Source: a virus. Taken from it: a DNA stretch of 64,000 bases. Positions within the stretch are counted from its first letter, which is position 1. Every line of letters begins with the position of its first letter. The notes beneath the pieces are model-generated. The model was not told the DNA's origin. It worked only from the letters and a program-made list of their open reading frames with translations, and made no database searches. The stretch lies in IMG/VR virus record IMGVR_UViG_3300027763_000029; one strand, given 5' to 3'. The translations under genes were made by a program, and so were the position numbers. Shown one piece after another: positions 1-56,918 of this stretch.

Positions 1-1035
1 AATCCAATCTGCCGGATTTAAATCAATATTCGGTCCAGTATATTTGATAATACTAATTGGTTTATTTAAAATTACTGACGAATTATTAGAGTATGGAGCT
101 GTTTGCTGTAATAAGACATAATCTGGTCTTTCGCTTTTGCTAATAACAAGATAGTTTTTGTGGGGTTCTAAAATCTCTAATGAATTAGATTGAATATCTG
201 GATCATACTCGACATATCCTTTTCCATCTTCTGATATTCCAATTATTTTTTCTATTTGAGATAATACATTACCTCCTAAACTATCAATATTTATAGACTC
301 TATGCTTGATGATGATGGATATGCTTCTGTCGGAATGTCGATAGTTGAATTAGTATACCCTCTACTAAATCCATTAGTTATTCTAAAATCATCGATATAA
401 CCTTTAAAATAAGCATTAGCACCAAAATAATAAGTCATAAAACCCATCGATTGATCAAAAGAATATTCAGTATTATCAATTATTGTATTGCTTCTTTTTA
501 TACCATCAATATAAAGTCTATTTGATGATCCTGATCTGGAAATAGCAAAGTGCTGCCACTTATTATTTAATAAATAGCTGTTTAGATTTGTAAAACTTAA
601 TTGATAATTTACTATTCCAGCACCTAGTTTCAATTCTCCTGATGAACAATTTAAATAAATACCATTATCAGATCCTGATATTGGCTTTAGAATATATCCA
701 CTATCTGTAAAGTCCGCCTTCTTCATCCACCATTCGATAGCAAAATCTCCAGTTAAAGATACTGATTGTGTTCCATTTAATGTAAAGTATCCATTTGAAT
801 AAGGTCCAAGATTAGGATTATAAAAACTTCCAGAACCAAATACCTTATCAGATGAAGATATACCTGCTGTAGAATTAGCCGTAACAGAACGATTATATAT
901 TGATGAATCAGTAAGCGAATTTCCACTTAATAATAAAGCAACTTGAGAATAATATGGATCAGTATTACCAGTATAAGTAAAAAAACAATATTTGCTATTA
1001 ATTAGTAATGGTTTTGGATAAAAGCAATTATTCAT
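1..1035 (-). CDS. Modular virion adhesin/fibre protein, 3'-truncated by window edge; LamG-like domain inserted into shared domain A
   Basis: Not in the ORF track. Manual translation from ATG at 1035 (MNNCFYPKPLLINSKYCFFTYTGNT-DPYYSQVALLLSG...GDFAIEWW...WQHFAISR...YIDDFRIT...IEKIIGISEDGKGY...) stays open to position 1. Confidence 0.85.
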   Translation of the reverse strand, partial: MNNCFYPKPLLINSKYCFFTYTGNTDPYYSQVALLLSGNSLTDSSIYNRSVTANSTAGISSSDKVFGSGSFYNPNLGPYSNGYFTLNGTQSVSLTGDFAIEWWMKKADFTDSGYILKPISGSDNGIYLNCSSGELKLGAGIVNYQLSFTNLNSYLLNNKWQHFAISRSGSSNRLYIDGIKRSNTIIDNTEYSFDQSMGFMTYYFGANAYFKGYIDDFRITNGFSRGYTNSTIDIPTEAYPSSSSIESINIDSLGGNVLSQIEKIIGISEDGKGYVEYDPDIQSNSLEILEPHKNYLVISKSERPDYVLLQQTAPYSNNSSVILNKPISIIKYTGPNIDLNPADWI

Positions 1036-18300: not shown

Positions 18301-19688
18301 ACTGTTGGTGTTACTGTGGGAGTTTTTGTTAGTGTTGGTGATACTGTATTTGTTGGTGTTTTTGTTGGAGTTACTGTTGACGTTATTGTTTTTGTTAATG
18401 TTGGAGTTGCTGTTAATGTTGGAGTTAATGTTTTTGTTGGAGTTAGTGTTGGAGTCAATGTTGTTGTTTTAGTAACTGTTGCACTAACCGTTGGAGTTAC
18501 TGTTGGAGTTAATGTGCTTGTTGCAGTATTACTTACAGTAACTGTTGGAGTACAAAGATTATCAGGATTATATGAGCAATAAGGACCACTGCCATTAGCA
18601 AAAGCACTAATAAAAGCAGGTGCTACATCACTCTGAGTAGCATATGTCCAATATCCTTCATTAATACCATATCCCTTATAATATCCAGCTTTAATCCACT
18701 CATCTTCTGTTGGTATCCAATATTTTGCCCCATCTTCTTTTGGATAAATTCCATAGTTAGCACCATCCAAAAAATATGCTCCGTCTTCTGTGGTAGATCT
18801 ATCTTGTAATCCAGTATTTGGTTTTCCGTTATGTAACCAGTTGCAGTATCTTGCTGCATTATACCAGCTGATAAAAACTACCGGTTTATTACCCATATAT
18901 GATCTTGATATATAATCATATATTCCATAGCTTGTTGATCTTTGTATTCCTCCTCTAGGATCAGAGGACATTAGGGGATTATAAGCATTATAATAATCAT
19001 ATTTTGCTGTGCTATTTAAAAAATCAACATACTCATCGTTAGTAATTTCATACTTGCTAATAGCATACTTATAGCTAACGCTTCCATATCCATTAGAATC
19101 ATTAGAATTATTGATATCTTCAATAACAACAAATCTATTATTTTCAAAATCACATGAACATGGTCTAAATCCTAACTTATCCGAAATATATGATGGATCA
19201 GCAAGTGTTCTATCTTTAAGAGAAGACGAACTTGTTGTTGACCAGTTTCCACCCCTATAAACTCTCTTAATAGAGTTTCCACTAATAGTATCATTCCATT
19301 CACTAGCATTACCGTCCATATCATAGCAGTCATAATAGCTTGGTCCGCCATTAGTTCCTACCGACGTTGTGTTACCTTGACCAGTAATATTCCAAATTGC
19401 AAAATTATTATAGTTGGCCGTATTGAATCCAGTTATCCTAGCTAATATAATAGGATTATCTGTAGTAGCATCACTAAAAATTAAATAATACCTATCAGGC
19501 TGTAATTTAAGAAGGTTATTAAAGCTTGATCCTGGTACCCAAGAATACATCTCTAGTCCATCATAGGATATTCCTAATACTTTTTTTATCCTAGATTTAA
19601 ATGGAGCATCATCAATAGTTAAACTGGTTAATCCAGTATATTTGACTATTTCCGTTGCCTGGGTGATGATGCAGAGATTGTCTATCAT
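12369..19688 (-). CDS. Giant (2439 aa) adhesin-like virion protein: domain A, 3 permuted FGE domains, LamG, propeller repeats, 2 Fn3-like domains, C-terminal YVTN-like propeller
   Basis: LamG: VSLLLHFNG...GDFTVEAW...WTHVAFSR...YIDELRVTKGIARYT. Propeller-type repeats: SIAYGNG.FVAV and SxDGINW. FGE motifs as in the neighbouring gene. Confidence 0.85.
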   Translation of the reverse strand: MIDNLCIITQATEIVKYTGLTSLTIDDAPFKSRIKKVLGISYDGLEMYSWVPGSSFNNLLKLQPDRYYLIFSDATTDNPIILARITGFNTANYNNFAIWNITGQGNTTSVGTNGGPSYYDCYDMDGNASEWNDTISGNSIKRVYRGGNWSTTSSSSLKDRTLADPSYISDKLGFRPCSCDFENNRFVVIEDINNSNDSNGYGSVSYKYAISKYEITNDEYVDFLNSTAKYDYYNAYNPLMSSDPRGGIQRSTSYGIYDYISRSYMGNKPVVFISWYNAARYCNWLHNGKPNTGLQDRSTTEDGAYFLDGANYGIYPKEDGAKYWIPTEDEWIKAGYYKGYGINEGYWTYATQSDVAPAFISAFANGSGPYCSYNPDNLCTPTVTVSNTATSTLTPTVTPTVSATVTKTTTLTPTLTPTKTLTPTLTATPTLTKTITSTVTPTKTPTNTVSPTLTKTPTVTPTVTPTKTLTPTVTPTKTLTPTVTPTKTLTPTLTPSTCPVGSADTFSNNVSLLLHFNGSNNSQVFTDSSSNSSTNTISYVGDAKISTDDYRFNNSSLYIDGVGDYLQIPANSTLFGFGSGDFTVEAWIKIIAYGTYDTQLFTTTGISTNFSFSVRNNGILNFWNGSASTSFGTTAVPLNQWTHVAFSRAAGQIRAYINGSEVGLASIPTLLSNTLPVCIGATPNYPNSNTCYIDELRVTKGIARYTTQNFTYHCPSPDPSPTPTNTLTATTTKTPTNTSTLTVTPTKTPTVTPTPTITKTITATATKTPTPTVTPTQQVFITQRSTTNQSLDVSINDLGLGSVSSPIDIAILGSDYITVGKGFPAIILTNGGSIYLNDNIDNQNGWILGPDLSSLPGSNSGPSYYSGISSITYNPISGMLIILPSARKTSRDYNASVLPSNKYYYSYDKGYSWEVGTIPYGFWQSIAYGNGMFVAVASHSTQVVENLTYPALSPHLYITSTDGINWTARTLPSPTSSYFNTYYAGYSRISFLNNTFVVSPSNKAIVPGGYYVGNGDCVLFSSDGLNWTKRNINGIGGMSITYGESKWIAVSDSIFNSASVKYSYDTINWTNASLDSSAPASSSIAYGDHTFIFAGYGITGENRYGVSIDGINWRIKNDLPLGWGGYGGQTYYTKIVYLNNGRFMMLARDPETFSFSTRALSVSSFIFSIGSNSANFSNCADWGGNDGDLTTVGSNGGPSAYGTYDQSGNIFEWNDLNGVGGPGALSQGVYRQLRGGAFNEFTISYIGAGNNRSHIPSDVSNSFGFRVASSYSTLNPLGLSNFVTVGDINNANDTYTTKGAVSYIYNIGKYAVTNSEYTEFLNSIAITDTYNLYHPNMGSNGIGQVGGIVQSGSSGSYSYSVKVNHGNKPVNWISWFDAARYCNWLHNGKPSGIQNNSTTEDGAYSLNGLFNGNAVSRKVGAKYHIPTENEWYKAAYYKGYGVNSGYWRYATQNDSDPVCVSADISGDGMIPSPTPTPTVTPTNTPAITKTPTITPTITVTSTITPTRTPTKTLTPTVTSTLTVTPTRTPPPTSTPVRYALPAGANTANFNYCADWDSIDGNVTTVGTNGGPSAYGTYDMNGNVFEWIDDVPGVGSYNYVGGSYLSSLSEFGDDVGIYGRASWGLGDYIGFRLATLTNPNNYSNFVSVGDPNNQSNTKPSRKGNVSYTYMIQKYPVTNNEYRDFLNAVATTDTYELYYANMGISRGGIIRSGTNGSYSYSTKTNYDDKPINLVSWLSTARYCNWLHNNKPTGLQDSSTTEDGAYNLSGAISGNISRNTIAKYFIPNFNEWYKAAYYKGDGTNSGYWKYATQSDTAPTCISSNSIGYGPLATPTPTPTRTPAVTQTPTITATSTTTPTPTTTPLPLVPTLVSVSTSSFAVIFNVNDFQVAFELNSSSDGGSNWILEGNGTVSSNSNNTSYITYSESKIWRVKCWKSITPDIVSPWSNTHTYINPENLIPPSITNITANSITITNMDRRTDGYGYYILEFSTDNIKWKLFDYNPISYAIPLIRGHSNGIVSWRIRLLNYGTGISVSDWNTITVAPTPTPTVTQTLTPSLTVTPTITSTITPTKTLTLTPTITPTITSTITSTITPTKTPTPTLTATPTSTQTVFTQVAPYAYFPGYGIQSLVFEGNSNRVHGLAGATGGVLFCLDVSSNIFSIRSIGLGTGISCPITVGTNGSVFIAKDNFIIHCIGSSTSYSNYTTSFSGLGTFDFIKYDSNSSKLYASVGGFIKSYDVSAFFNTPLTESASLNLGVSARNIVKFGLKLYILGDGVVYVYDINSNTITKFINLPTGLFNYPSLISHSNMFLDTNNRLFIPMPNYSMGQSGLVIINTATDTISNTITLPVGCEFIAAGIHVNTIYDRAYMNLYNSSVNNSTNKLISIDITDSISNGNVGVIAKSISTIAPRFGLISNGSKLIVGGGGYDDYLVSYTDIGPFI

Positions 19689-20642: not shown

Positions 20643-23630
20643 TTATGTAGCGTCGTATATTACTATTGATGGGTTGGTATTAGAATATCCACCAAGAGCT
20701 AATCTATTTGATAGATAGATCGTTCCTAATCTTGGAACTCCAACACAGAAATTTTTTGTAAGTATACCTATATCGTCATTATCTATCGAAGCAGCAATAT
20801 CTAATCCTACTAGTCTGTTGGATGAATTACTAGTACTAGAATTGTTACAATTGATATAGGCTATGTCATGAGCAACGTCAACAGCAATATTAGCTTGAAT
20901 AAAGTTAATACCCACAGGCAACGATATTGTATTGCTTATAGTATTATTAGAGGTATTAATTACTAGTAAACAGGCTTGACCATTTCCAAAACTTGGTAAT
21001 GGAATATATAGTTTATGGTTTGTATTATCTAGGAAAGAGTTAGAAGAGCTAATATTGGTAATACTTCCAAATTCCGCTGGTAAAGTTATCGAAGTTACTT
21101 CGGTATTTCCATCAGTATCTATAACAATTATTGAGGTATCAGTAATCAAATATAGCCTATCATCCGTTGAATTGACTAATATATTTTTGACATTAGTACC
21201 AACAGCTAAAGTTAAGCTAGATATTTCAGTAAGAGAAGTAGAGGTAGATGTACTATAGGTCTTTAACATACCTCCTATAATACCATATAAACGATTAGAT
21301 GAACTATCGTACTTAATAAAACCAAAAGATCCAAGAGAACCAGATATACTAATAACAGAATTAAGATTATCTAAATCATAAACACCTATTTTATTATTTG
21401 ATCCAAGATAGATTCTTTCATCTTCACCAATTGTCATTGGACATGTTGCTATTGTCATAGAACTATTTTGTAAATGAAGAGCATCTAGAACATCTAAACT
21501 AGATGAATATGAGTCAAACTTATATATAGATTGAAAAGAAGTATCATAATCAACTAAACAGTAAATAAAATTACTATTACCTCCAACTCCTATATCTGTA
21601 AATTTATGACGACGATATAGACTTTGTAAGTTCTTATATGCCAAAGTAGGAAATACTACCTGAGTCGCTGTTGGCGTTACTGTTGAAGTTGGAGTAACAG
21701 TTGGAGTTTCTGTAATGCTAGGAGTTACTGTTGGACTTAATGTTAATGTAGGAGTCGGTGTTGTTGTTTCTGTAGGTGTTGGAGTTAAGGTCGTGGTTTC
21801 TGTAACAGTTATGGTTAAAGTCGGAGTTGCTGTTGTACTAGGCGTTAATGTTGGAGTTTCTGTTGGGGTGAGAGTTGGAGTTAGAGTATTTGTTGGAGTT
21901 AGCGTTGGTGTTAGTGTTTCTGTTGGCGTTAGAGTTGGAGTTAAAGTCTCTGTTACTGTTGGAGTTACAGTATTTGTTGGAGTTGCCGTTACTGTTGGAG
22001 TAAGAGTTTCGGTTGGTGTTATGGTTTGAGTTGGTGTTATAGTTTGAGTTAGCGTAACAGTTGGCGTAGGAGTTTGAGTTAGCGTAGGGCTTATTGTTAA
22101 GGTTGGTGTTACTGTAACAGTTGATGATATTGTTTGTGTTGGCGTAGCCGTTGGTGAATTTGTAATTACTGGAGTTCTAGTAAGTGTTGGAGTATTAGTA
22201 GGACTTACTGTTATTGTTGGAGTACAAACATTATCGGCATTGTAAGCACAATACGGACCACTACCACAAGATCCAGCACTAATCGATACTGGAGTACTAT
22301 TACTCTGAGTTGCATAATTGAAATAGCTTGGATTTTTATAGTATGCTGCCTTAACCCACTCATCTTCTGTTGGAATCCAATATTTAGCGCCATTATTTTT
22401 TGGTATGATTCCTTGATTTGCTCCATATATATCGTATGCACCAGTTTCTGTGCTGTTGGCAGTTGGTGCTCCTGATACTATTTTGCCGTTATGGAGCCAG
22501 TTAGCGTATCTTGCGGCATTATACCAGCTGACATAAACAACTGGTTTATTTCCCATACATGGCTTACTATAGTAAGAATACGAACCATTAGATCCAGTTC
22601 TGATTATTCCGGCTCTAATATCATTAATTGTAGCAGTATCGTATAGTCCATAAGTATCTACTACTGCCGTAGCATTTAAAAAATCAACATACTGATCATT
22701 TGTTACAGTATATTTTTGTATCATATACTGATATGGTACAGACCCATATCCTGTAACAGCATCTGGTTCATTGTCCTCGTCTAATATCGGGATAAAAAAA
22801 TTATAATTTGAAGGATTTGACCAAGAAGCTAATCTAAATCCTAAAGTATTCAAAGATCCAGAAGGAGAGTATATTGTTCGAGCACTTTTAGCTAAACTGG
22901 AAGATGATGAAGACCAATTTCCTCCTCTAAAGCTTCTGGAAAAATTATTAAGAATATTATCAGTCCACTCATCAACATTTCCATTCATATCATAACAACC
23001 GTAATGGCTAGCACCACCATTAGTTCCAACAACGGTTACATTGCCTGTTTGAGCATTCCATCCTCCAGTATTGTTGTAATTAACAGCATTAAAACCAGCC
23101 ATAACCGGTGGTTTTTCCCATAGAACGAAAGGAGTACCATTAGTAATGATCAAATACATTTTATTAGGAGATAGATAGGTTAAAGTATTAAACTGACTAT
23201 CTTTAGTCCATGAAATAAAAGAAGAACCATTACTACTAACTCCATAAATTTTTTCTATAAAAGGAAATGTTCTGCTTGTAATATTTAAATTTTCTGTATT
23301 CTTATATGTTACTAATGAAATTTTATTTTGTAGTATTATAGAAGATGTTGGTAGAACGTCTGCTGTTACTGGCCCAAAAGAATACTCAGGATATTTTTGT
23401 GAGCTTACTATTATGTAGTTTTTATTTGTTTCTAAACTTGTAAGACTATTAAAAATACCACTAGGTTGATAATAGACATAATGATCTCCGTCTTCACCAA
23501 CTGTAAAAATAGTAGATATTTCTGATTTAACATTATTATCAAGACTATCTAAAGATAGATTATCTCCTAAATATTCTATAAAAGATAGCTGTTTTGTGAT
23601 ATTAATGCTATTACCATTGATCATATTCAT
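20643..23630 (-). CDS. Adhesin-like protein: 2x domain A, permuted FGE domain, Thr/Pro stalk, YVTN-like beta-propeller
   Basis: The C-terminal ~330 aa align with the C-terminus of the 2439-aa protein ([17 protein letters not shown] vs LGTFDFIKYDSNSSKLY; [17 protein letters not shown] vs INTATDTISNTITLPVG). Confidence 0.85.
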
Positions 23631-23720: not shown

Positions 23721-25670
23721 TTATCCCAATATAACATCGCCAGCTTTAAATACTCCATAGTATCTCTTATTGTTGAGTGATGCTTTAGTGAAAACGAATG
23801 GCTCATCAACATAGGTGCTATTGGAGAAAGTCACTTGAGCCACTTGTACACTATTAACAATCAATCTCATAATTTGAGGCATATCATCTGGTGATAATGC
23901 ATTAAAAGAGAATACGTCCCCAACACTGCCTTTGAATGTTACTCCATCAGAAGATTCTCCAGCAGTAGTAGTATTAACAGTTATAGATAAAGTTGTATCA
24001 TAAGCTGGTGATGGTGTTGGAGAAGGGGTCGCAGTTTGAGTTACTGCTGGAGTTGCTGTTACTGTTGGAGTTACTGAAATAGTAGGTGTTACAGCTGCTG
24101 TTCTTGTTAAGGTTGGAGTAGGAGTTGGTTGTAATAAACAATCATTGCAATATATATTGATAAGTTTATTGGTCCCAGCAGAACATCCTGGATCTTCTGG
24201 ATAGACTGTTAATTTTAAGATATTGAATTTTGTATTCTTGATATTCTCAGAGAAAGCTACTCCGGTATCATTATATTCAAAGCAGTCATCACAACTAAGA
24301 TCATTATCAAAATAAAACATATTAGCAATAGTAACAGCAGTAGTATCAGGATAAAAAGATCCACTTCTTGGATATATATTACATGGCCAGTTTGAGGAAA
24401 CTGATTCAAAAGAGTAATTATATTTTCTACCAATAGTTAAGTCTGAGATTGTTGTGGATATGGTTGTACTATTGACATTTTGAGTATTAAGAGCGATTGT
24501 GCTATTAGCGTCATCTATTATTGGGCAATTAACATATGTGGAATAATCTGTATGATTATTTGCTTGATTATAGATAAGATGGACAGAATCAGTATCTAGA
24601 ACAACATTCTTATCTAGCAAATCAACATTAACAATAACATTTTTTGCAGTATCCATTGATAGCATTGATAAACAATCACCAAGACTATTTACTGTATATA
24701 GAGATCCTGAGCTTGGAACCATCATCGGGCTACCAGTATCACTACTGACTCTGAATCTATATGTATATTCGTAATTATCTCTTTTTGTATTTGATACAGA
24801 TACGTTGATTGGGATGGCGTTCTCTAAATCAGAATCTGTTAATCTTGTTATTTTATCTCTTCCAATTATACTAATGTTTGGCTTACGTGCAGTAGAATAT
24901 GTTGAATCAGGATTAACTGAAATTGATTGTTCTGATATGGCGTTCTGAATATCAGCCGATGGTATAGATAGTGGTGTAAATAATCTTCCGCCAAGAACTT
25001 GATCTCCGCATATGAAAGCTATTGAGTCACCACAGACTAAATTATTATCTTTGAATAAGTTAATATTTAGGATTATATTATTTGTATCATTAAATAGTAC
25101 TGTTAGTGGTATAGTTGCTGGTAAGTTATTATTACTGATTATAGTTCCAGATTGTGGCGATACTGATGGAACTCCACCAGCGCCAACAGCACTTATCGAA
25201 TAAGTATACGGATAACCATTTTCAGCATCTCTAACAGTAGCTATTATTGGTAGTGGATTAGAGCAAGCAGAGTCTGCTATGTATGTGATATCGGCCATGT
25301 CAAAATTAACAGATACTTTATCAACACTACTACTAAGTGATCCACTAATAGTTGGGGCAGAATAAGGGAATATTATTCTTGTTCCACTAACCGGATGTAC
25401 CATATGGGAAATAACATAGTACGAGTGGCTAGATTCTAATTCGGTCAAAGTAGATGCTGTCGATATGGTATTATCAGAATTTTTAAAGAAAACGGGGATG
25501 CTACTATCTTCTCTTTGTGATCCATAAATAGCCTTAACACTATCTATAAATCTTTTATATTTTGACTCCTCTATTGATCCACTAGTAATTCCTGCCGGAG
25601 TAGATGAGCTTAAGGGTAAATTAGCCTTACCATCGTAGCGCGTAATTGTAAATTGAGAATCAATGATCAT
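23721..25670 (-). CDS. Modular virion protein: divergent domain A, 3x Ig-like domain B, Thr/Pro linker, C-terminal beta domain
   Basis: Three internal repeats of YxYxF/I...(V/I)xPxSG...IxC. Confidence 0.75.
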   Translation of the reverse strand: MIIDSQFTITRYDGKANLPLSSSTPAGITSGSIEESKYKRFIDSVKAIYGSQREDSSIPVFFKNSDNTISTASTLTELESSHSYYVISHMVHPVSGTRIIFPYSAPTISGSLSSSVDKVSVNFDMADITYIADSACSNPLPIIATVRDAENGYPYTYSISAVGAGGVPSVSPQSGTIISNNNLPATIPLTVLFNDTNNIILNINLFKDNNLVCGDSIAFICGDQVLGGRLFTPLSIPSADIQNAISEQSISVNPDSTYSTARKPNISIIGRDKITRLTDSDLENAIPINVSVSNTKRDNYEYTYRFRVSSDTGSPMMVPSSGSLYTVNSLGDCLSMLSMDTAKNVIVNVDLLDKNVVLDTDSVHLIYNQANNHTDYSTYVNCPIIDDANSTIALNTQNVNSTTISTTISDLTIGRKYNYSFESVSSNWPCNIYPRSGSFYPDTTAVTIANMFYFDNDLSCDDCFEYNDTGVAFSENIKNTKFNILKLTVYPEDPGCSAGTNKLINIYCNDCLLQPTPTPTLTRTAAVTPTISVTPTVTATPAVTQTATPSPTPSPAYDTTLSITVNTTTAGESSDGVTFKGSVGDVFSFNALSPDDMPQIMRLIVNSVQVAQVTFSNSTYVDEPFVFTKASLNNKRYYGVFKAGDVILG

Positions 25671-25698: not shown

Positions 25699-26385
25699 TT
25701 ATGTAAGATCTAATACACCCTGATCTATAGAGGAATCGTACTTTTGATTATTGCTTGTAACACTAATACTTTGGTTAATAAAATTAGATAAATATACCAA
25801 TGTGCCAATTTTTACACCTAGAATTTTGACATCCGAAGAAGTATTAATCAGTGGTGAAATTGACTTTAATAAGCCTATTTTTGAAGATATCTCTTGTATA
25901 TTACCTATAGATATAACAGTATCTCTATACTGATTGCTATATGGAATAAACTTAAAAATAGGTAATTGATCAACTTTATATTCCCAATTATTATATACGC
26001 TTAAAACTATATCAGATCCATCATTTACTTCACAATCACTAAGAGTACCACATTTGACAACACACATCTGAGATGCTGTAATATTTATGCCACTAATCTC
26101 TGCTTTAACTATATGAATTTTTGTTGGATCAATTCTCATTAGAGTAGATAGCTTTTGAGAATTGGCACTAGCTCTAATAATTTGATTTGTTGGAGAAAAT
26201 GAAGCAGTATTATTCAAAGTGGAGTAGTTGATGGAGTATGATTGACCAATAATAAGATTATTAATATCTAACGAGACTATAATTTCTCTGCACTCGCAGT
26301 TTTTATAGGCCAATACAATGATATTATCTCTGGGTTTTTGAGGAGAATAATAGTCTAAATTAAAATTAATGCTAGTAGTAGGCAT
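25699..26385 (-). CDS. Virion protein with domain B
   Basis: NNLIIGQSYSINY...FSP...VVKCG; the N-terminus resembles that of the 1305-aa protein. Confidence 0.7.
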   Translation of the reverse strand: MPTTSINFNLDYYSPQKPRDNIIVLAYKNCECREIIVSLDINNLIIGQSYSINYSTLNNTASFSPTNQIIRASANSQKLSTLMRIDPTKIHIVKAEISGINITASQMCVVKCGTLSDCEVNDGSDIVLSVYNNWEYKVDQLPIFKFIPYSNQYRDTVISIGNIQEISSKIGLLKSISPLINTSSDVKILGVKIGTLVYLSNFINQSISVTSNNQKYDSSIDQGVLDLT

Positions 26386-27901: not shown

Positions 27902-30900
27902 TCAGATTGGGGTTCTAGTTGGAGTTGGAGTCAAAGTATTAGTTTTTGTTACTGTGATAGTCGGTGTCGGAGTTGGGGTTGGACTAGTAAAAGGGTATGT
28001 TCTTACTGGACAAGTCAATAAATAAGTCCAAGCAGTTGATGCGCATGGAGCCTCAACTACAACCTTAATATATATCATTCCGTCTGGTTTCTCTATCTGA
28101 TAACTACCAGCTCCAGTACCACTCAAACCTGTTGCATAACCGCAAGGGCTACTTCCCCTAAAACCACTATCAAATAGTAATACTTCTGGTTTTGTCTTAT
28201 CGACAGGAATACCTATAACCTTGAATCTATCAGGAATAGTATAAGCTTCATAATAGAATGTCATAGTTCCAGGCCAAAATGATGTCTGAATCACTCTTGT
28301 ATCTACAGTATAAAGAGTTACTTCTGTTTCAATAGGAATATTCTCGATAATATTATTATTCAATGTTATTTTCTTAAAACCAGCAGTATCATCTATGCTT
28401 CTGAAATAATCTTCTACAGATACTGCGTGTGTATCTTCGTCTAATCCATCTGATCTCAATATAGAATATTGCAAAGCTGTTGTTGGTACATTATCAACTA
28501 CGATATAGTTTTGTCCGGATACTGCTGGTATGACCACATTCAATATGTATATTGGATTTTGCCCGCCAGCACTCTGTAGATCGTTACAAGGTACTGGTTG
28601 AGATATGGTCGGAGTTGGAGTGATACTAGATGTTGGTGTTGGACTAGGTAATACTCCGATAATCTCTACAAAATTTTCAGCATTAAATTTACTATTTAAA
28701 TTATTTACATCTCCATATCCAGTTAAAACAGTAACGGATATCGGAGAGTCGAGATATCCACTCCCAGGATCTGTGATATTTACAGCTAATTGAGAAAATT
28801 TATTTGGATCTGAATTTATAGATGCTCCACTTCCGTCTCCATTAGAAGAAACTATTGATGGTGGATATGAAGAATATCCTGATCCAGCATTAACTACAAC
28901 ATATGGTTTATCCGTAAATTGATTTATATCAAATACTATACCTGTTGTTAATGGAATTTCATTGTGATCTACTAGAGATGGAGCAGTTTTATATCCTGAT
29001 CCAGAATTTATTACAATATATGATATGATAACTCCGGATTGATCCACCGAAGTAACAAGTATCTCGGCCCCAGTACCTCCGCCACCAGTTAAAGAAATAA
29101 TATCTCCAGCAACAACAACTGTAGTATTAGTTCCTATGAGCGATGATATAGAACTATTTGTTATTCCATTTTCTTTTGAAATAGCAAAATTATTAGAATT
29201 AGCAACTAATGTTGCTGCTGTTCCATTTCCTGTTAATGTTACTAGTCCTGTTGGAGCACTAGTGAAACCATAACCCCCATTTAGAACTTCGTATGTTAAA
29301 ATATCACCATATGAATCAACAGTTAATATTTTAATAACAACATCAGAACCACCACCACCGGTTGTTGTTAACAAGTCATTTGGAGCATATCCGTAGCCTC
29401 CGGTTAATGATGTTATAGAACTAAGAGTCATTGATCCCGAAACTATTTTTATCTGAGCTCCAGAGCCTCTACCACCAACAACATTTAATGTTTCTCCTAT
29501 ATTGTAATGATTACCACCAGAAACAGTAATCGATTCCGACGTTATTCCTCCAAGAGCAGGAATAGTAAAATGATCATTGTTGAAGGAAGCAGATACTCCT
29601 TGTCCATCTCCTGTTAATGATTGTAATCCAGTAGGAGCTCCTGTATATCCGCTACCAGAGTTAATAACGGTGAAACTAGGATCTGTAAAATTATTAGAGT
29701 TAAAAGTAGCGACTAAACCAGCGCCATCTCCATCTGAACTAAATTGCGAAGGAGCATTATAGTAACCTGATCCAGCATCAATAATAGCAAAACTAGTTTT
29801 AGTAAACTTAGAAGTATCAAAAGCTGGAGTATTAGTGACAACACCACCAGAACTATTTAATACTATGGGGATGGAAGTATATCCTGAGCCTCCTGAAGTT
29901 ATAACAAAATCTAATATTTTTCCTGAACCATCGACAGATAGAATTTCTATGGTTGCTCCAGTTCCATTGCCTCCTGTAATTAATAAAGTGTCTCCAACAT
30001 CATAACCAGTACCAGTATTAATAAAACTAGAGATAGAAGACTTAGTAATTGATCCAGCAGCAGGAATACCAAAATTATCGGAATTTGCAGATATTGCCGG
30101 TTGTGAACAATTTTCAGAAGAGCATTTTAATACCGATAATGCTGTGGGAGGAACAGTAAATCCATAACCACCATTTATTACTTCCCAATCAGTTATGGCT
30201 CCTGTAAGTTCGTTAATTTCTGTAACTCTAATAACAACATCACTTCCGTCTCCTCCTGTTGTTGTTAATAGATCTCCAACAGTAAATCCAGATCCAGCGG
30301 GTAATGTTCCATCAATAGTTTCTTTAGTAATAGAACCAGACGTAATCTTTACTTGAGCTCCTGAACCACCACCACCAATTATATCAACTATTTCTCCTAT
30401 ATTATATCCTGTACCTCCTTGTAATTTTATCGAATCACTAGATATTCCTCCAGCAGCAGGAATAGTAAAATTATCAGCATTAAAAACAATATTAGTACAA
30501 GATCCTGAGCTATTCAAAGATACTAGACCATTAGGAGCATAAGTATATCCATGTCCTGGATTAAGAACATTTATACTCGTTATTGTCCCACCAGCACCAG
30601 TGTTAGTAACTTCTAGAACAGCATCTTTACCTCCACCGCCAGTAGTTGTTAACAAGTCTCCAATTGAAAATCCAGTACATCCACCGATTGTATTTATGTT
30701 TACAGAATCGTTTGTTAAGCCACCGCTAGTAATTTGTATTAGTCCACCAACACCACCACCACCTGTAACAGAAATATAGTCTCCTATATTATATCCATTT
30801 CCACCACTAAAAGCAGTGAATGAATCAGTAGTTATTCCTCCTGCCACAACCGTCAATGAAGCACCATAGCCTCCACCGCCATTCGGTGACAACTTATCTC

Positions 30901-31819
30901 CAATTCTGAATCCTTTTCCTCCACTGATATCAGATATCGAATCATTAGTTAATCCCCTTAATGCACAACTTCTAAAAGCAGGAGCACCTATTGCCAAATC
31001 AATTCCTGATGGCAAATTAATATCATTCATTGTTGTACTAATATGTTTAAATAATATTGGATCGCTTAATTTTGTTATATTATTTTCAGAATCTGTTACA
31101 GATGCGTACAGGTAGATGAACTTTCCTTCGTTGTTGGGAAATGTTATTTTACTATTAAAGTTTTGGGTGCTTTCTCCAGAAAAGAATTCGCCACTTTTCT
31201 TTTCAAATGATACGGAATTAGGCGGAACATCAAAAAATTCGTAGTTATATTTATAGCCTATAATTGTATTTTTAGCTAAACCAACCAAAGGAAATTCTGT
31301 AGTACCAGAAGGTAGAACTATGATACCATCATTGATGGTAGTATATCCAGGATCAACAAGCTCGACAATAACCCTATTTTGTCTAGAAAATGCACTTGGT
31401 GTTAGTGTAGGAGTTTGTGTAGGAGAAGGTGATGGGACTATATCATCTCCACACTTTAATGTGCACATAGCAGAAGATCTAACATCATTTTCTTGATCAT
31501 ATAAAGTTGCTTGTAGAACATAGTCTCCAGCAACATCTAAATCAACAAGAGTTGCAAATGTTTGTGTTGAAAATGATGCATAGATAGACTCTACTGCAGG
31601 ATTGAATATATTGACTCTATTTCCTGGATTTGAGTTTGGATTCAATATTTGATAAGTTATCTGATAGCTATTTCCAGGAATTAAGTTATCGCATATGACC
31701 GATAGGATAAAGTTGTTATTTATGCATTGTCCGGCCGGTAGCTTATATATCCCCAGACCTGTTCCTTGTCCGGGTAGATAATAAGAAAAATCGAAAGTGA
31801 TTGTTGCTGGTGTTGACAT
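27902..31819 (-). CDS. 1305-aa structural protein: 2x domain B, nine nested Gly-rich repeats, C-terminal AYxxPDRF/TAW-CP beta domain
   Basis: GxGYxxGD...GGGGxxA...VxNxGxGYxxxP repeats resemble those in baseplate/structural proteins of T4-like cyanophages (from recall). Confidence 0.8.
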   Translation of the reverse strand: MSTPATITFDFSYYLPGQGTGLGIYKLPAGQCINNNFILSVICDNLIPGNSYQITYQILNPNSNPGNRVNIFNPAVESIYASFSTQTFATLVDLDVAGDYVLQATLYDQENDVRSSAMCTLKCGDDIVPSPSPTQTPTLTPSAFSRQNRVIVELVDPGYTTINDGIIVLPSGTTEFPLVGLAKNTIIGYKYNYEFFDVPPNSVSFEKKSGEFFSGESTQNFNSKITFPNNEGKFIYLYASVTDSENNITKLSDPILFKHISTTMNDINLPSGIDLAIGAPAFRSCALRGLTNDSISDISGGKGFRIGDKLSPNGGGGYGASLTVVAGGITTDSFTAFSGGNGYNIGDYISVTGGGGVGGLIQITSGGLTNDSVNINTIGGCTGFSIGDLLTTTGGGGKDAVLEVTNTGAGGTITSINVLNPGHGYTYAPNGLVSLNSSGSCTNIVFNADNFTIPAAGGISSDSIKLQGGTGYNIGEIVDIIGGGGSGAQVKITSGSITKETIDGTLPAGSGFTVGDLLTTTGGDGSDVVIRVTEINELTGAITDWEVINGGYGFTVPPTALSVLKCSSENCSQPAISANSDNFGIPAAGSITKSSISSFINTGTGYDVGDTLLITGGNGTGATIEILSVDGSGKILDFVITSGGSGYTSIPIVLNSSGGVVTNTPAFDTSKFTKTSFAIIDAGSGYYNAPSQFSSDGDGAGLVATFNSNNFTDPSFTVINSGSGYTGAPTGLQSLTGDGQGVSASFNNDHFTIPALGGITSESITVSGGNHYNIGETLNVVGGRGSGAQIKIVSGSMTLSSITSLTGGYGYAPNDLLTTTGGGGSDVVIKILTVDSYGDILTYEVLNGGYGFTSAPTGLVTLTGNGTAATLVANSNNFAISKENGITNSSISSLIGTNTTVVVAGDIISLTGGGGTGAEILVTSVDQSGVIISYIVINSGSGYKTAPSLVDHNEIPLTTGIVFDINQFTDKPYVVVNAGSGYSSYPPSIVSSNGDGSGASINSDPNKFSQLAVNITDPGSGYLDSPISVTVLTGYGDVNNLNSKFNAENFVEIIGVLPSPTPTSSITPTPTISQPVPCNDLQSAGGQNPIYILNVVIPAVSGQNYIVVDNVPTTALQYSILRSDGLDEDTHAVSVEDYFRSIDDTAGFKKITLNNNIIENIPIETEVTLYTVDTRVIQTSFWPGTMTFYYEAYTIPDRFKVIGIPVDKTKPEVLLFDSGFRGSSPCGYATGLSGTGAGSYQIEKPDGMIYIKVVVEAPCASTAWTYLLTCPVRTYPFTSPTPTPTPTITVTKTNTLTPTPTRTPI

Positions 31820-34648: not shown

Positions 34649-37600
34649 TTAAGCCGTATGACCAACGCGACCCATAATTGCATCTGGATTTCCTGCTGTA
34701 ATTTGAGCCTCGCTATTTTTATGTAAACCATAGACAAGTGTCGATGAAGTATTGTTAGAAATAACCTGAGAGTTTGCCGCTGCCTGAGCAAGTAACTGTT
34801 GACCCATTTCTCCAAGACCAGTATGATGATGTGTTTGTGTTACACTTTGAGAAACAGCAAGCTGTCCAGGGAAATTGCTTGCATGTTCACCAAATTGATT
34901 AGTTATACTTCTAAATTCCTGCATAGCTGCTTTAAATTCTTTTGCATCCAATGTCATATTACCACTATTTACATTTCCTCCTTTTGCAAAGTATTGGGGG
35001 GATACTGAGCCACCATCAGATAGATGTATTGGCATTACCATAGGAGGAGCAACCATAGGAGCAACCATACCTCCTTCGGCCAAATATTTTACCACTCCAC
35101 CTTGACTATAAGCTCCACTATTAATAGCTTGTAACATTGGCATATGTTGTTGGGCGGCTTGGCGATTGATAACAAATTCGCCAGGAGTTAACATTGCTGG
35201 AACGGTGTCGGTCCCCATTGGTTGAGCATTTATAAAAGCCCCATTACTAGCATATACTAAACCTCCAGTAGCATATCCAGTTCCTCCACTAGGAGTTTTC
35301 CAATTCTTTCGTTTCTTTTTATCAGGATCAATAACTGGCATTTTAGCAGCATTGTTGTTTGTAGCATCTATGTTCGGCATTGGTGCTGCATTATTATTTG
35401 TAGCATCGAACATCGGCATTTTTGCCGTACCTTCTGTATTTTCTTCGCCAACAACATCTTTAGGGGTGACAGATCCTGATAATAGATTGTATAAACCATA
35501 TCCAATAGTACCGCCAATAGGAGCAGCCATACCCAATCCTGTTAATAGCATTCTTGTGCTTTTTGATTGCTGTTTTTTTTCTAGAAGCGTTCGATATTCG
35601 GCATCAGCAGCATTCTTTATTCTTGCCATCTCTTCAGTATCACCAGCTGCCTTTGCTTTCTTCCACGATTTATTAAATCTATCCTTTACTGCTGCAAGCT
35701 CTGGGTTGGAGGCTCTTCTTTTTTGTTCCAACTTTTCTGACGATACTCTTCCAGCAGCTACAACTTCAGGAGATGAAGCTGGTTTTATAGGAGGGTTTAT
35801 TAGATCATCCAAAGATTTTTCAAAATCCGAAATCCTTGTTGAAAATGATGACATTTCTTCTGATGATTTTGTTGCTCGTGAAAGTCCATTGATCTCAGAT
35901 ATCATATCAGAAGCTTTATCGCCTTTTCTTAATCTATCTTGAATAATATTTATATCTAATCCTGCTTTATCCCAATCTTTTCTTAATCTATATAGTTCTC
36001 TACTATCTTTACTATATCCTAATGCTTTCCCTACCGTATCATGGAACTCTTCTGATGCTGCTGTTCCATTTGTTCGTCTTCTCTCTACTTCAGCATCAAA
36101 AGTTTTTGTAAGAATGTCCACATTTTCTGGCTTTCCTACAAACATATTTGGCTGACCTTTGACAAATCCTGCGCTTCTTCCTATTTTTAACTTGCCTGAT
36201 TGTTCTAATTCTAATAATTGATCTTTATACTTGTCATATGTTTCTGCTGAAGTTAATAATGCTGCTGGTTTACCTGGTTGATCCGAAGAAAATCCTCTTC
36301 TTGCTGACCTTATCACACTTTCTACCTCTTGGTCTCCACTAATTACTCCAAATCCAGCAGAAGCTAGTTGATCAACTCTTGATATTGAAGAAGGATTGAC
36401 TGGTGTTTCTGTTGCCTTTTTGGTTGCTTGGTCTACTGATGCTTTTTGTTGTGGAATTGCACCGGCTTCTGGACCACCCTTATCAGTATAGCTAATATCT
36501 CCTTTGTAAGTTGGAAATAAATCAGGATAATCTCTATAAAATTCATCCATCATTTTCGAAGGACCCAATTTGCCTGCCTTGTACAGAGCTGTATGTATCT
36601 CGCTGACTATCCCTCCCTTGGTTCTAAGGCTCGACATTAGAGGAACTTCAAAATTATCAAATCTAGGATCATAAGTTTTATCGGTACCTTCTTGTTTTCT
36701 TTTAGCAAGCCATCTTTTACGCAAATCTTTTAATGCCGAGGTTAACTTTTGAGTATCAATTGTATCAAGTCCCCCATCAATATTAGGATCATACCTTGTG
36801 GTTCCAAATTTCCCTAAAGAGACTGTGTCTCCATAATCCTTTGCTCCGCCAGCAAAAAGAATATCATCACCCAATGCTTCCATACGTTTAGTTATAGCAA
36901 TAGCTTCTTCAGCAGTACCCTTTTTACCATATGCTACTAAGAATCTTTTATCCCTACCCGATACAGAATCTTCAAATGAGTGCTGCTTGAAACCAAACGG
37001 ACCAAGCATCTGTGCTAATTCTGGATCTGCTGCCATACGAGATATCATTTCGTCCATTTGACCGGCCTGTACGGCAAATCTCGGCTTGTATCCAGTATTT
37101 ATTGGCTCTCTATAGTCAGAAGATACTTCTTTTGGTTTAAACCACCTAAGCATAGTACCCGTATCTTCATATGAGCCCGCGCGAACTTCTGTATTATACA
37201 AACCCTGTTTCATACCGGTCGGGTCGTCTTTTGCTCTTTCTAATAAATCTTTGGGACTCCTGGCTTCAACTTCAACCGGCTTAATAGAACCAGCAGCTTC
37301 TTCAGCAGCACTAACGGCAGGATTAGCTGTTTCCACATTATTTGTGTTTGATCTGGTATTTATAACAGTTTGTTGCTGTTGTGGAGTTAAATTTGCCCAA
37401 GCTTCTGTGGTATAATCATCGGGCTTTCCTGTGGTGCTAATTGGTTTACTTGATGAAGAGCCTTCAAACATACCACCCATCAATTTATCAACTTCTGCCT
37501 GCTCTTTAGCATTAGCAGCATCTATTTTTTGTTGTCTATATTCAGTGACGCTTATTCCAGCCTCATTTGCTTTTGTTCTATCAAAAATATCAGACCTGAT

Positions 37601-40600
37601 AGATGATGCTTCTTTATTTAATTTTTCGTTAATTTCAGCTCTAATTTTAGCTCGTTCTTTAGGATCCTTAATATCTTTGGTTTTTTCCTTATATTCAGCA
37701 CTAAATCGTGCTTTAGCTTCTGCTTTTCTTGCCTCTTTTTCAATAGCAAGATCTGATAAGAATTTGTTGTTCCTTGCTGTTGCTGTTTTTTCAGCTATCG
37801 CTGGATCAATTCCATCTTTAACCAATTTTTCCGCAAGCTGAGTTTTATTAAGATAAGGATTTTCAGCAATAACTTTATCTATCTGTGCTTTTGTCTGTGA
37901 AGCAGCACCTGCTGATTTAAACTCACTATCGATCCCAGATAATAAGCTGGATATCCCCCTCATAATTGGACTAGAGCTTTCGCTCATGGGAATACGAGCA
38001 CCCTTCATTCCAGGTATGCCAAAACCATTATTAGGTACCAAATGAAGAATAGGACTCATGAATTCAAAAATACTCTGATCTCTTTGAGCCTCTCTAGCTT
38101 CTGCTACTCTTTCTTGAGCATCTCTAATTTGTGTTTTATTATCTTTTATTTGATTTTTTTTCTCTATTGCAGCTAATCTATCGTTTCTGTCCATGATACG
38201 ATTAAAGTCTTCAAATCTTAATTCTTGTGCAATATCGTTGAAAGATGTTGGCTTTGCTGGTCCTTCTGGACGAGCATAATTTTTGGTTCCCTTACCTCCA
38301 AAATTAGATGATGGAAGAATAAATCCAGAAATAAAATCCATTAAAGCATCTTGACCAGTACCAAAATCTCCGCGATTAGTTGCTCCTCTAACACCAGCTC
38401 CTATTGCTGCTTCCGTAGACCCACTAACAGTTCTTGTTAATAAAGATCTAACAATAGTAGAAGATCCAGTAAATGGATTGCCAGTTAATAATCCAGTCAA
38501 TAATGATCCAACAGCAGTTTCCCTTGGTCTTTTTTGTGCTAATTCTTTTTGTCTTTTATCAAAATCTGTACCTTCTAATGCCACGTCTTGTAATGCATTA
38601 GCAGTCAAACTAGCAGTAACTCCTCCAAGTATGGTAAGTCCAGCAGCAGCAAGGCCAGTTACTCCTAGAGCTGGTAAGATAATAGGCGCACCAGCAATGG
38701 CCGCTGTACCAGCTAATAATGGAACTATTGCTCTTTGAGCAGCCAATCCAACAGCTTCTCCACCTTCTGAGTCTCTCGCTATCTCTAATTTCTTTTTAGT
38801 ATCTTGAAGACTCTGTTTATCCAATTGACTCATCTGATTAATAGTTAAAGTTTCTCTTCTAATGGTATTAGCTGATACGGTTGATCCTCTTCTATCTCCA
38901 AATGGAATTCCTCTCTCGGCTTCATATGTTCCTAATTCTTCATATTCTTTTGCTGTTAATCTCTTCTTTGGCTTTTCAGCTCCTCCCCATTCTTTTGGCC
39001 AATATTCCCCTAGCCAAGATCTATCATATTTACTCTGACCTATTGCTCTTGATCTAAGTTCTTGAAATCTTTTTTCCGACTTTTCTCTTTCGATAGCTAT
39101 TGTTGCTTGTTGTTCTTTGATATCAATAGCTTCTTGTTTTGCATTATCTGCATTTCCATTAAAAAATTGTGCTCTACTAGGACCACCAGCAGTTGTTGCT
39201 TTTTGTGCATCCAATACTCTACCAGTTATAGGATCAACTCTAGCCCCAGACTTTTTGGGTTCTGGAGGCATAACTGGTAATGCGTCAAGCTTATCTTGCT
39301 CCATAGCAAGTTGTTTCATTGGATCTTCAATAGTAGGTATAACTTCTGGCAGAGGAATCGGTGGAGAAGGTAGTGAGGCATTAATATCTGCGGAAACCTG
39401 TTCACTAATACCTTTAAGAGTTTCATTATGTTCTAGCTGCGATATTGTTGAATCATTTCTAGACTGTTCAAGAGCTATATTTCTAGATTGAGGAGCCAAC
39501 TTATCAAGAGGCACAGTGAACCTTGTTCCATTAGCTCTTTGAATAACAGCAGATCCCGATTTTTCATTTACACTATATATTCTGCCAGATATCTGTTTGC
39601 CACTATCATTACCTATTAAGAAATTTTCACCAGTTTTAGCTTTATCTACTTCTTTTTCTAAAGCATGTGCTCTAACTTTAGTTCTGGACTGATCGCTTAA
39701 TTGATCAAGAGGTACCGTTGTATAGATTTGTTCTTCTTTATATCCTGTAACAAACTTTTCAGGATCTCTTCCTTGGGCTTCTAATTGTTTCTTTGTTACC
39801 TCTCCATTACCATATATTGGTATTTTCCTAGTAATAGGCATACCTGTTTTTGGATCAATCTTTGCTATTCTAACTGTTCCAGCCTTAAAGTCTACGTTAT
39901 CAATAGTTCCTGTTGTTGATGCTGTTCCATCCTTATTAGTAAACTTATATTGAGATTCTATAATCTGTTCTCTTCGTCTTTGTTTTTGTTGTTCAAAACC
40001 CGCAGATGCTGCTGATCCTGGATCATATCCGGGCGGATTTCCTCCTCTATCACTGGTGATCATACCAAGCTCTTTGTCTCTAGCGTCTAGAGCCATTTGA
40101 CGCTCACCTTCTACTCTGCGTCTTTCTTGCTGTTTCTCATATGCTTTTTGTCTAGCATCATTTATAGCAGGATTGCCCTTTTCTTGTTCATCTATAAGAT
40201 TATTCATTTTCCCAACCGGACCCTGAGTACCAACTATCGCCCTATCAGGACCAGCAATATCTCTTCCATTACCTCTATCTACTCTGTTACTTTGTTCTCT
40301 TGCAGATTGCGACGATTTATATTCATCTATATAATCTCTAGTTTTTTGACCTGTTGGATCGTCTCTAGTTGATAAATCTTCTTTGTCTCTAATATGACTT
40401 AATGCACTAGATTCATTATATGAATTGGGTGTTGATGTAACTCCTATTGATCTCCAGAAATTTTCATCTCTGCCTATACCATATTGTTGATCTCTAATTG
40501 AGTCAACAGTCATATTAAAAATTTTATCAGGATCAGCATCAGGATTTTGAGATTGAATCTTTTGTCTATTTTCTTCAAAATATCTTCTATCTGAATATAT

Positions 40601-56800: not shown

Positions 56801-56918
56801 AGTCATGTATATCAATACTAAAAGGAGGATAAAGACCACCTCCATCGCAATCTGCAAGTATGCCTGTTATAGCAGTATCTGATAATACTGGTATAAATAT
56901 GTCACTACTAATAGTCAT
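53835..56918 (-). CDS. Fusion: arylsulfotransferase-like propeller + LamG + Thr/Pro linker + tail terminator-like domain
   Basis: ASST-like motifs DVHE, WFHANS, SCRN, QHDARW, IFDDG. LamG: HFDGNNGSSTFIDSS...FTIDAW...GYIDEL. C-terminal QLPAIVID...PYELG...QDVMIHIL, with the gene lying just before the tail tube gene. Confidence 0.7.
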   Translation of the reverse strand: MTISSDIFIPVLSDTAITGILADCDGGGLYPPFSIDIHDYYIRESSVSGVSNISLFVNEIDRTLEVIPSGSVNKTLYITDDIQEYFIKIIPKDFPVATISEKTADYIPGYYLAVPSDGFSAQIYCSIYDQYGVPIWYVKSPSQTISLHKGYQNNRLITNAWNDQERYIIQLSENNLDLVNIINMINPDSRSVNHTIDVHETQEIKNPINRRGNIIYLSYNNGFYIQEQSPNHQIVWEWWSGDSFNSNDPEWFHANSLDVHPITGNIVVSCRNHNVVFCIDYETKDVIWAIDTNGSLEAITIQTNPINFLTVTGDEYNGLDAQHDARWQMDIEPLTSGNDTVSIFDDGSFTGTLAGGVIYEIDLTNSTAICRSRIKGDSGIPFQGSYTIVKELDDSFTHTINYVTLSPRMIEYKGDSNGLGTQVQTFALDFSESGPNPYEYRVIKVRSDFFDINYLRTTSGRDIFHYEDTTVLDMHFDGNNGSSTFIDSSQYNNVISIEGSPVISDSQSVSGGTSLYLDGSSNLKIANSPIFNLSNSKFTIDAWFYPTLEIAQGSIIGKDQHGISLSWVVYITDDHISFYGHNGGDGLIGPAFISSNEWHHVVVSGNPLFGDMFNIKVYVDDILSIDDSYQMTDADSIITIGRVGGTTEPGGYFTGYIDELKVIKSQRVLPNQPTPTPTPTPIIGNTPTPTPSSTNSIVTTPTPSSSPNNNRNRRPASAAFNLVSDIGHMGPVASLEDNLKSFLDWSFLNIGAFVNVDISTNSLDGGDFSKLKPVSGDPTVVYPRVWESPRKDWIYETGIYYHNTSPYNISGINLNGTFLPAPTGSGAYSYHINYPLGRVTFDKNISAKSNVSLEYSYRLVQVYKSSDSVWWKEVVENSYNPSVLQDKTSSYNKIQLPAIVIDIAPRSVSIPYELGTTTNILIQDVMIHILTESPVQRNNLIDILLKQKDKMLNLYNLQKLIKNDRQFTNYRGEPNPNRLNYDQIYNDQSFYLARAYIKNAVLSELNVFSNNLYHGVLRLSIEIYPTI

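Follow-up and report, generated by a model that had tools for sequence, protein, structure and literature searches.

A phage tail-module protein in which nine homologous barrels are probably nested within a single chain

The 64,000 nucleotides analysed here (the window) correspond, in reverse orientation, to the first 64 kb of the IMG/VR record IMGVR_UViG_3300027763_000029, which comes from an uncultured marine phage, is 151,782 bp long and is rated complete. A gene on the minus strand of the window, 27902-31819 (-), which we call the nested-barrel gene, is a single open frame of 1305 codons without stops, and its product of 1305 amino acids (aa; P0001, the window protein) most probably contains, between residues 289 and 1050, a nested single-chain tree of nine homologous barrels. 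Each barrel would consist of an N-half of three strands and a C-half of three strands joined by a distal hairpin; in barrels 1, 2, 4 and 7 this hairpin would be replaced by two complete daughter units, themselves joined by a linker of six residues. The chain would run outward through the unfinished N-halves and then close them in reverse order with the C-halves.

The pieces of the array were located with a unit profile, a hidden Markov model (HMM) built from the five contiguous units of ~85 aa and run on all open reading frames (ORFs) of the window. The profile matched five full units (expect value, E, 1e-33 to 1e-37), four N-only pieces (N1, N2, N4 and N7; model positions 1-39) and four C-only pieces (C4, C2, C7 and C1; model positions 47-84), and nothing comparable was found in the other 25 ORFs. 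With [NC] for a contiguous unit and L for a linker, the order along residues 289-1050 reads N N [NC] L N [NC] L [NC] C C L N [NC] L [NC] C C and corresponds to the tree 1(2(3,4(5,6)),7(8,9)). The initial annotation of this DNA, made from the letters of the sequence, had described four lone N-halves balancing four lone C-halves as brackets; the HMM returns the same order, and all 17 segments translate exactly as described there. Four of the nine units are discontinuous, split by 175 to 681 residues, so the repeats are not all contiguous and in tandem as on a string of beads; the N-only and C-only matches bracket full units of the same family, as expected of recursive homotypic insertion. Among the 48,620 possible orderings of nine N- and nine C-halves, 14 are full-binary bracketings, and for the 19 units of the largest relative the corresponding figure is 4,862 of 3.5e10.

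N- and C-halves follow one plan (strand, GxGY, strand, glycine-rich loop, strand), with the motif GxGYxxGD...GGGGxGA in the former and GxGYxxxP...NF in the latter. HMMs of the two types gave no significant cross-matches, and comparison of the N-half with the C-half profile by hhalign indicated marginal similarity (E 0.057). All insertions lie at the same hairpin, which corresponds to the central one, between strands 3 and 4, of the split units, and the junction between successive N-halves is made without any residue between them. The 6-aa linkers TIPAAG, GIPAAG, TIPALG and AISKEN are located exclusively between siblings, DLLTTTGG is common to leaves 3, 5 and 8, and GTGA..SVDxSG is common to leaves 6 and 9. 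Linker placement, child-type motifs and the constant insertion site are all as first claimed, and so is the duplicate nature of subtrees 4(5,6) and 7(8,9), which are collinear over 251-254 aa with 46% identity (E 1e-60). At the DNA level the repeats are just 60-88% alike, which indicates that the pattern is old and not an effect of assembly.

On the (-) strand the array opens with N1, the lone N-half of root barrel 1 (30839-30955, residues 289-327), and N2, the lone N-half of barrel 2 (30722-30838, residues 328-366). They are followed by unit 3, a contiguous leaf of the first-child type A (30467-30721, residues 367-451), the sibling linker TIPAAG (30449-30466, residues 452-457), the lone N-half N4 (30335-30448, residues 458-495), unit 5, a leaf of type A (30071-30334, residues 496-583), the linker GIPAAG (30053-30070, residues 584-589) and unit 6, a leaf of the second-child type B (29804-30052, residues 590-672). 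The lone C-halves C4 (29687-29803, residues 673-711) and C2 (29567-29686, residues 712-751) would then close barrels 4 and 2. Beyond the linker TIPALG (29549-29566, residues 752-757) lie N7 (29435-29548, residues 758-795), the type A leaf 8 (29186-29434, residues 796-878), the linker AISKEN (29168-29185, residues 879-884) and the type B leaf 9 (28916-29167, residues 885-968), and the array ends with C7 (28796-28915, residues 969-1008) and C1 (28670-28795, residues 1009-1050), which would close barrel 7 and the root barrel. The assignments are those of the unit HMM, complemented for leaves 3, 5, 6 and 9 by a tree of units. N7 and C7 are missing in the 7-unit relatives described below.

The same bracket rule is obeyed throughout the close relatives of the window protein. 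A protein search of 5.8 billion sequences yielded 87 relatives, which were parsed with one profile for the N-half and one for the C-half, both rebuilt on a total of 582 halves; the window protein itself is present in identical form on 4 contigs. All 41 complete close homologues, which come from JGI, ENA, NCBI and Logan, are balanced brackets generated by the rule U -> N U L U C, and they fall into five architectures. The commonest has 7 units (26 proteins) and the form 1(2(3,4(5,6)),7); 9 units in the same form as the window protein are found in 4 proteins, 11 units with the ending ...7(8,9(10,11)) in 5, and 13 units, one level deeper than the 11-unit form, in another 5, while a single protein, P0002, has 19. 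An N-truncated fragment, P0018, is compatible with a 17-unit tree. Every one of the 158 split units holds exactly two children, the sibling linker (the gap from a C-half to the next N-half) measures exactly 6 aa in all 158 cases, and the gap between successive N-halves is 0 in 157 of 158. Nesting is thus multi-level, with several inserts per node, and reaches a depth of 4 in the window protein and of 8 in P0002. Homologues with different nesting depths and a tree of half-units had been named at the outset as further support; the trees of 7, 9, 11, 13 and 19 units are all balanced, and in a tree of units the members group by structural role (root, unit 2, other split units, A leaves, B leaves), not by protein. 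In P0002, the similarity matrices of the N-halves and of the C-halves of the nine split units correlate under bracket pairing (r 0.81; as high in 1 of 5000 permutations). This congruence is significant solely in the 19-unit protein; in the window protein alone it favours N1 with C1 and cannot separate units 2, 4 and 7.

Two further observations concern the composition of these trees. Over residues ~284-1921 of P0002, units 12, 14, 16 and 18 and units 13/15/17 cluster with its own units 2, 4, 6 and 5; on this clustering, a whole copy of subtree 2 appears to have been re-inserted deep in the second arm, which would account for the depth of 8. The commonest sibling linker among the homologues is TIPCAG, in place of which the window protein has TIPAAG or TIPALG, and the consensus also keeps cysteine in leaf 3 (GCxGF, plus a cysteine near the C-terminal end). 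The cysteines of the TIPCAG linkers and of leaf 3 may form disulfide staples at the branch points.

The strongest evidence that a given N-half and C-half belong together is the way in which trees of different size differ. P0015 (11 units) and P0008 (13 units), which are 89% identical, differ by 133 aa comprising a linker, an N-half and an A leaf and, ~96 residues downstream, by 40 aa comprising one C-half. Between P0016 (9 units) and P0004 (13 units), at 84.5% identity, the two differences amount to 266 and 80 aa. The window protein differs from the 7-unit relatives (49-53% identity) by 127-130 and 40 aa, from the 11-unit P0009 (58% identity) by 127 and 40 aa, and from the 13-unit P0007 (56% identity) by 274 and 82 aa. 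In every compared pair, N-halves and C-halves are gained in equal number, at two separate sites, and the size quantum is ~127-133 aa (N-half, A leaf and linker) plus 40 aa (C-half). A single contiguous insertion or deletion (indel) behind the size changes was considered and rejected, as the alignments always require two separate gaps. In a protein, these paired indels can be seen as the counterpart of the compensatory changes in RNA stems.

The history of these changes was approached through a tree of the non-repeat flanks, in which the 7-unit form is basal and the 9-, 11-, 13- and 19-unit forms are mixed in one derived clade; unit number shifts several times within this clade, each time by balanced steps. 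In the unit tree, leaf 9 of the window protein clusters with leaf 7 of the 7-unit proteins, of which it is the orthologue, while N7/C7 and leaf 8 cluster with N4/C4 and leaf 5. An existing leaf has therefore been wrapped and not split by an insertion. Wrapping, as read from these alignments, would consist in adding 127 aa upstream of the existing leaf and, separately, 40 aa downstream of it; it may have come about either through unequal exchange, twice in succession, within the tandem (N A L)^k and C^k runs or through a single misaligned conversion with two loops. Selection for closed barrels presumably holds the counts of N- and C-halves equal. The earlier proposal that repeated self-insertion had produced a branched single chain thus stands in part: the nested, branched chain is borne out by the grammar, the paired indels and the structure predictions below, but growth by insertion into a leaf is not. 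Its description as dendrimer-like has to be given up, because the trees are comb-shaped (caterpillar trees of the form (N A L)^k B C^k) and not evenly branched.

A structure of residues 283-1056 (774 residues) was predicted with AlphaFold2 (AF2) from a 40-sequence alignment. The model has a mean predicted local distance difference test score (pLDDT) of 90.3 and a predicted template modelling score (pTM) of 0.83; the lone halves score above 90, and every half shows three strands. When C1 was deleted in silico and residues 283-1008 were refolded, the pLDDT over N1, taken in blocks of 10 residues, dropped from 93/95/91 to 79/87/72 and N1 lost three of its four strands, while the adjoining C7 and all other blocks stayed within about +-5 to 8. 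The deletion thus affects only N1, ~700 residues away, as the nested model predicts and opposite to what pairing with neighbours would give; the initial annotation had expected long-range contacts of N1 with C1, and the predictions show N1 to depend on C1. For N2 and C2, pairing may be proposed by analogy and from one weak structural alignment, in which the N-terminal barrel of HerA (4d2i_B, residues 10-106) superposes on 52 residues across positions 49..453 of the model, from N2 through C2, with a root-mean-square deviation (rmsd) of 2.7 Å (Z 2.9). Pairing of N4 with C4 and of N7 with C7 would likewise follow by analogy and from the indels.

The nature of the unit itself is indicated by comparison with the sheath protein gp18 of phage T4. 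Leaf 8, for which domain I of gp18 is the best structural match, is a six-stranded barrel that superposes on gp18 residues 98-188; alignment with VIA-align (gp18 residues 99-188) gave Z 6.5-6.8 and an rmsd of 2.8 Å over 76-77 of ~83 residues with 22-24% identity, and the gp18 rows stand three Z units above the next ones. The leaf thus uses both halves to build one barrel, and a half on its own is incomplete. A profile built from 199 leaves, in a single comparison with T4 gp18, aligned with residues 104-156 (E 4.3e-5) and matched GSNYAVGD and the VDADGK hairpin of gp18 to the leaf motifs. In the T4 sheath, domain I of gp18, a six-stranded barrel, projects outward and takes no part in contacts between subunits, and in the gp18 topology domain I is inserted in II, II in III and III in IV (PMC3004832). 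The window protein resembles gp18 (PDB 3foa, 3fo8) in the type of barrel, in the matching GxxYxVGD and hairpin motifs and in that the barrel is itself an insertion. It differs in that gp18 carries one copy within unrelated domains, a heterotypic insertion, whereas in the window protein the barrel is both host and guest, in nine copies, and the core domains of the sheath protein are absent. A structural search of BFVD gave 52 rows at E <= 1e-3, comprising cyanophage baseplate-wedge, neck, fibre and structural proteins; the ESM Atlas clusters that match the model carry PF23786 Baseplate_wedge and PF22639 Gp18_dom_I, and a language-model search of the atlas with leaf 8 returned unnamed viral clusters alone. 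Cyanophage baseplate-wedge, neck, fibre and structural proteins with tandem 'GSGY' repeats of 40 aa and barrels like gp18 domain I have the motif family and structural matches in common with the window protein, but in the distant relatives that we read (e.g., P0073) the repeats are in tandem and not bracketed.

Several results weigh against the nested reading or limit its reach. In the distant homologue P0073, residues 164-475 hold eight tandem C-type repeats of ~40 aa (..VTNxGSGYTSAPTVTxSGGGGxGAxATA..) and no N-type half, which means that half-units can also occur in linear arrays. No balanced tree could be assigned to the 2100-aa relatives P0011 and P0014, in which several halves are truncated or degenerate. 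The fall in pLDDT of N1 upon deletion of C1 is moderate (~14 points) and not a collapse, and the deletion covered the N1-C1 pair alone. When C1 was offered as a separate chain to residues 283-1008, the predicted complex reached an interaction prediction score from aligned errors (ipSAE) of 0.54 against 0.00 for the best of three controls, which counts in favour of the nested reading but is graded as 'weak support': of 80 solved complexes 58 pass the mark for this score, as do 2 of 110 mismatched pairs, but values at 0.60 or under include 7 of the 80 solved complexes together with both passing mismatches. Three runs of this complex agree in at least 93% of contacts, with a pLDDT of at least 77 for C1. 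As for gp18, Z scores below 8 belong to the range that the alignment tool classes as common, and the Pfam family PF22639 Gp18_dom_I matches leaf 6 with 14.8 bits, below the cut-off of 27 (E 0.028), so the unit is at best a distant relative of gp18 domain I and not a member by the standard of Pfam. The closing of each barrel by its own two halves is approached here through indirect tests of a model.

A side observation on P0011 and P0014 is that several of their N-halves end after GxGYxxGD and some expected C-halves are swapped for short peptides, e.g., TQYSSSG; these irregular halves may be decayed split barrels or may reflect a relaxed rule.

Many tail proteins are oligomers, and the lone N-halves could in principle be completed by the C-halves of another chain, which would give a domain-swapped lattice between subunits. 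Balanced counts and paired indels would be required by such an arrangement just as much, and the recursively inserted domains of the RNA polymerase (RNAP) insertion Si3 are reported to exchange secondary-structure elements (PMC11515920). Nevertheless, the monomer model satisfies all halves with a pLDDT of 90 and the pTM given above, and the weak docking of the separate C1 chain does not favour closure between chains. The mirror-image order, the zero-residue junctions from N-half to N-half and from C-half to C-half, and the two children per node suit an out-and-back path within one molecule, and we regard closure in trans as improbable.

Still a little less probable, in our view, is that the 18 half-units of ~40 aa are the true repeats, each packing on its neighbours in sequence as a solenoid or a string of mini-domains, with the order of N and C merely recording the history of duplication. 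The shared strand plan of the two halves and the purely tandem C-type arrays of distant homologues such as P0073 would agree with it. On the other hand, a linear array offers no reason for equal counts of N- and C-halves across at least five architectures or for paired indels between relatives that are 85-89% identical. The effect of the C1 deletion on N1 instead of the adjacent C7, the match of the leaf to a single six-stranded barrel that uses both halves, and the pTM of 0.83 over 774 residues all speak against it. An artefact, be it a mis-assembled repetitive metagenomic region or a non-coding frame, might be suspected in a contig from an uncultured virus but is effectively refuted, as the frame is open across its whole length, the diverged DNA repeats leave nothing for an assembler to collapse, the identical protein is present on 4 contigs, and the 41 homologues from several sequence collections keep the rule.

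Under the nested reading, the array of 760 residues starts and ends in the root barrel and would act as a plug-in between regions 1-288 and 1051-1305. Since both ends lie in the same barrel, the length of the arm can vary without moving the N- and C-terminal regions, which are the presumed anchors. In space, the tree can be pictured as a stalk of split barrels with one A leaf on the side of each and a B leaf as the cap, the chain ascending along one side and returning along the other; from the root barrel two arms of this kind would extend, one formed by unit 2 (k=2) and one by unit 7 (k=1 in the window protein and, among relatives, from k=0 up to at least 3). The two-stranded connections with no linker would stiffen the arm, consistent with the pTM of the model. 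Given the position of the gene in the tail module and the outward-protruding barrel of the gp18 type, we read the tree as a surface-exposed arm; the position and the virion-protein matches would fit an inserted, outward-facing module of a virion protein. It may serve as a rigid, surface-exposed, length-tunable branched scaffold or adhesin which shows its leaf barrels for contact with, or spacing from, the host surface.

Nested domain insertion usually goes one level deep and takes place between unrelated domains. The initial annotation was aware of no earlier description of such an architecture, but there is a precedent in Si3 of the cyanobacterial and plastid RNAP β' subunit (RpoC2). Si3 consists of recursively inserted HABAS or sandwich-barrel-hybrid (SBHM) domains (CATH 2.40.50.100; PDB 8emb; PMC10895346, PMC11515920), and a survey (2026) of 2.7 million domains singles it out for its 'six-level' recursive insertion with bifurcating nodes (PMC13114784). 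Both systems have eight or nine copies of a small beta domain in one chain, several of them split by inserted copies, with multi-level nesting and bifurcating nodes, and in both the whole array is an insertion whose ends meet. The two also differ. Si3 sits in the RNAP trigger loop, whereas the present array belongs to a phage tail-module protein without RNAP domains; its barrel, related to gp18 domain I, is probably of another family; it follows a strict rule (every node bears two children, the linkers are 6 aa long and the leaves are of type A or B); and its depth varies from 4 to 8 among close relatives, while accounts of Si3 present it as an old elaboration that is fixed. A Foldseek search of PDB with the whole model gave nothing at E <= 0.001; 8emb is its top row but with E 0.012, probability 0.04 and a template modelling score of 0.06, and the Si3 rows are not used here as evidence of a common fold. 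Si3 8emb is not among the VIA matches listed either. The conserved GD of the N-half recalls the GD-box-like motif of HABAS (PMC11515920), a resemblance by description. What is new in comparison with Si3 is, probably, the domain family and, beyond it, the phage tail host protein, the strict binary typed rule and the depth that still varies. Si3 is the sole published case that we found of one domain family recursively inserted into itself, and the phage array would be another case of this very rare architecture.

The family could be seen as an evolving 'grammar' protein, in which a tail arm alters its length or valency by the addition or removal of an N-half, a leaf and a linker at one site and of the matching C-half at another, a proposal against which we lean slightly. 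If it is true, the closure of a fold would do to indels what base pairing does to compensatory substitutions in RNA stems. The family would then also be the first documented system in which recursive homotypic domain insertion continues today, at depths of 4 to 8 levels among close relatives, exceeding the six reported for Si3, and it would offer a tractable model of domain-insertion evolution and a template for the design of branched single-chain proteins. Proteins with 85-89% identity carry trees of different size, and the natural series of 7, 9, 11, 13, ~17 and 19 units provides a route to studying the origin of insertions and their tolerance by folding. Covariation of indels is a new type of evidence for long-range pairing in proteins. 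As a design principle, the tree suggests rigid branched single-chain scaffolds whose two ends lie together, which would allow their insertion into a loop of any host protein. In a phage, the arrangement may offer a means of tuning how far a tail appendage reaches, or its valency, with the anchoring domains left unaltered.

The genomic setting and the sequence matches indicate that the nested-barrel protein is a structural protein of the tail-tip or fibre module. In PHROG it matches virion structural, baseplate-wedge and Hc2 families. A Pfam scan of the whole protein gave no match at E <= 1 and no biotinyl/lipoyl or RNAP domains, a sequence search of PDB gave chance-level rows alone (E >= 0.25), and the sole tblastn match among 50,697 phage records was to a 16% stretch in cyanophage P-RSM6 with 31% identity. 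Every homologue is labelled 'hypothetical protein' in its source database.

The gene is the fourth downstream of a tape-measure gene (34649-50047), the ORF of which encodes 5132 aa and matches tape-measure families with E 1.8e-25 in PHROG and Pfam scans of the neighbouring ORFs. Those scans covered 20 ORFs and returned almost nothing besides the tape measure and a domain of the FGE-sulfatase type. The similarity of the large ORF (34649-50047 (-)) is confined to its first ~510 residues and to residues ~2550-2650 (phrog_28, E 1.8e-25; phrog_25241, E 3.5e-12). The length of a phage tail usually scales with that of its tape measure, and if this scaling holds here the tail would be extraordinarily long; otherwise most of the protein would be cargo. 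Farther downstream of the nested-barrel gene, proteins with FGE-sulfatase (C-type-lectin-like) domains and two giant ORFs are encoded. The FGE-sulfatase domain (PF03781, E 1.3e-22) lies in a 995-aa ORF of the tail module, and repeated matches to phrog_15511 occur in four large ORFs of this module, 20643-23630, 12369-19688, 23721-25670 and 53835-56918, all (-). The regions that match PF03781 or phrog_15511 are candidate receptor-binding domains or targets of diversity generation.

The repeat array is flanked by a C-terminal region (27902-28669 (-), residues 1051-1305), for which no family was found in Pfam or PHROG, and an N-terminal region (30956-31819 (-), residues 1-288). Linkers rich in proline and threonine at residues ~128-143, ~1057-1075 and ~1275-1305 (PSPSPTQTPT.., PSPTPTSSITPTPT.. 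and TSPTPTPTPT.., respectively) part the N-terminal, repeat and C-terminal regions; the first lies within the N-terminal region, the other two flank the C-terminal one, and the last forms the end of the protein. Residues 5-125 (31445-31807 (-)) are 31-32% identical (E ~1e-9) to the N-terminus (26044-26376 (-)) of a 228-aa ORF three genes downstream (25699-26385), and such a module, if common to the two proteins, would suggest a common attachment site.

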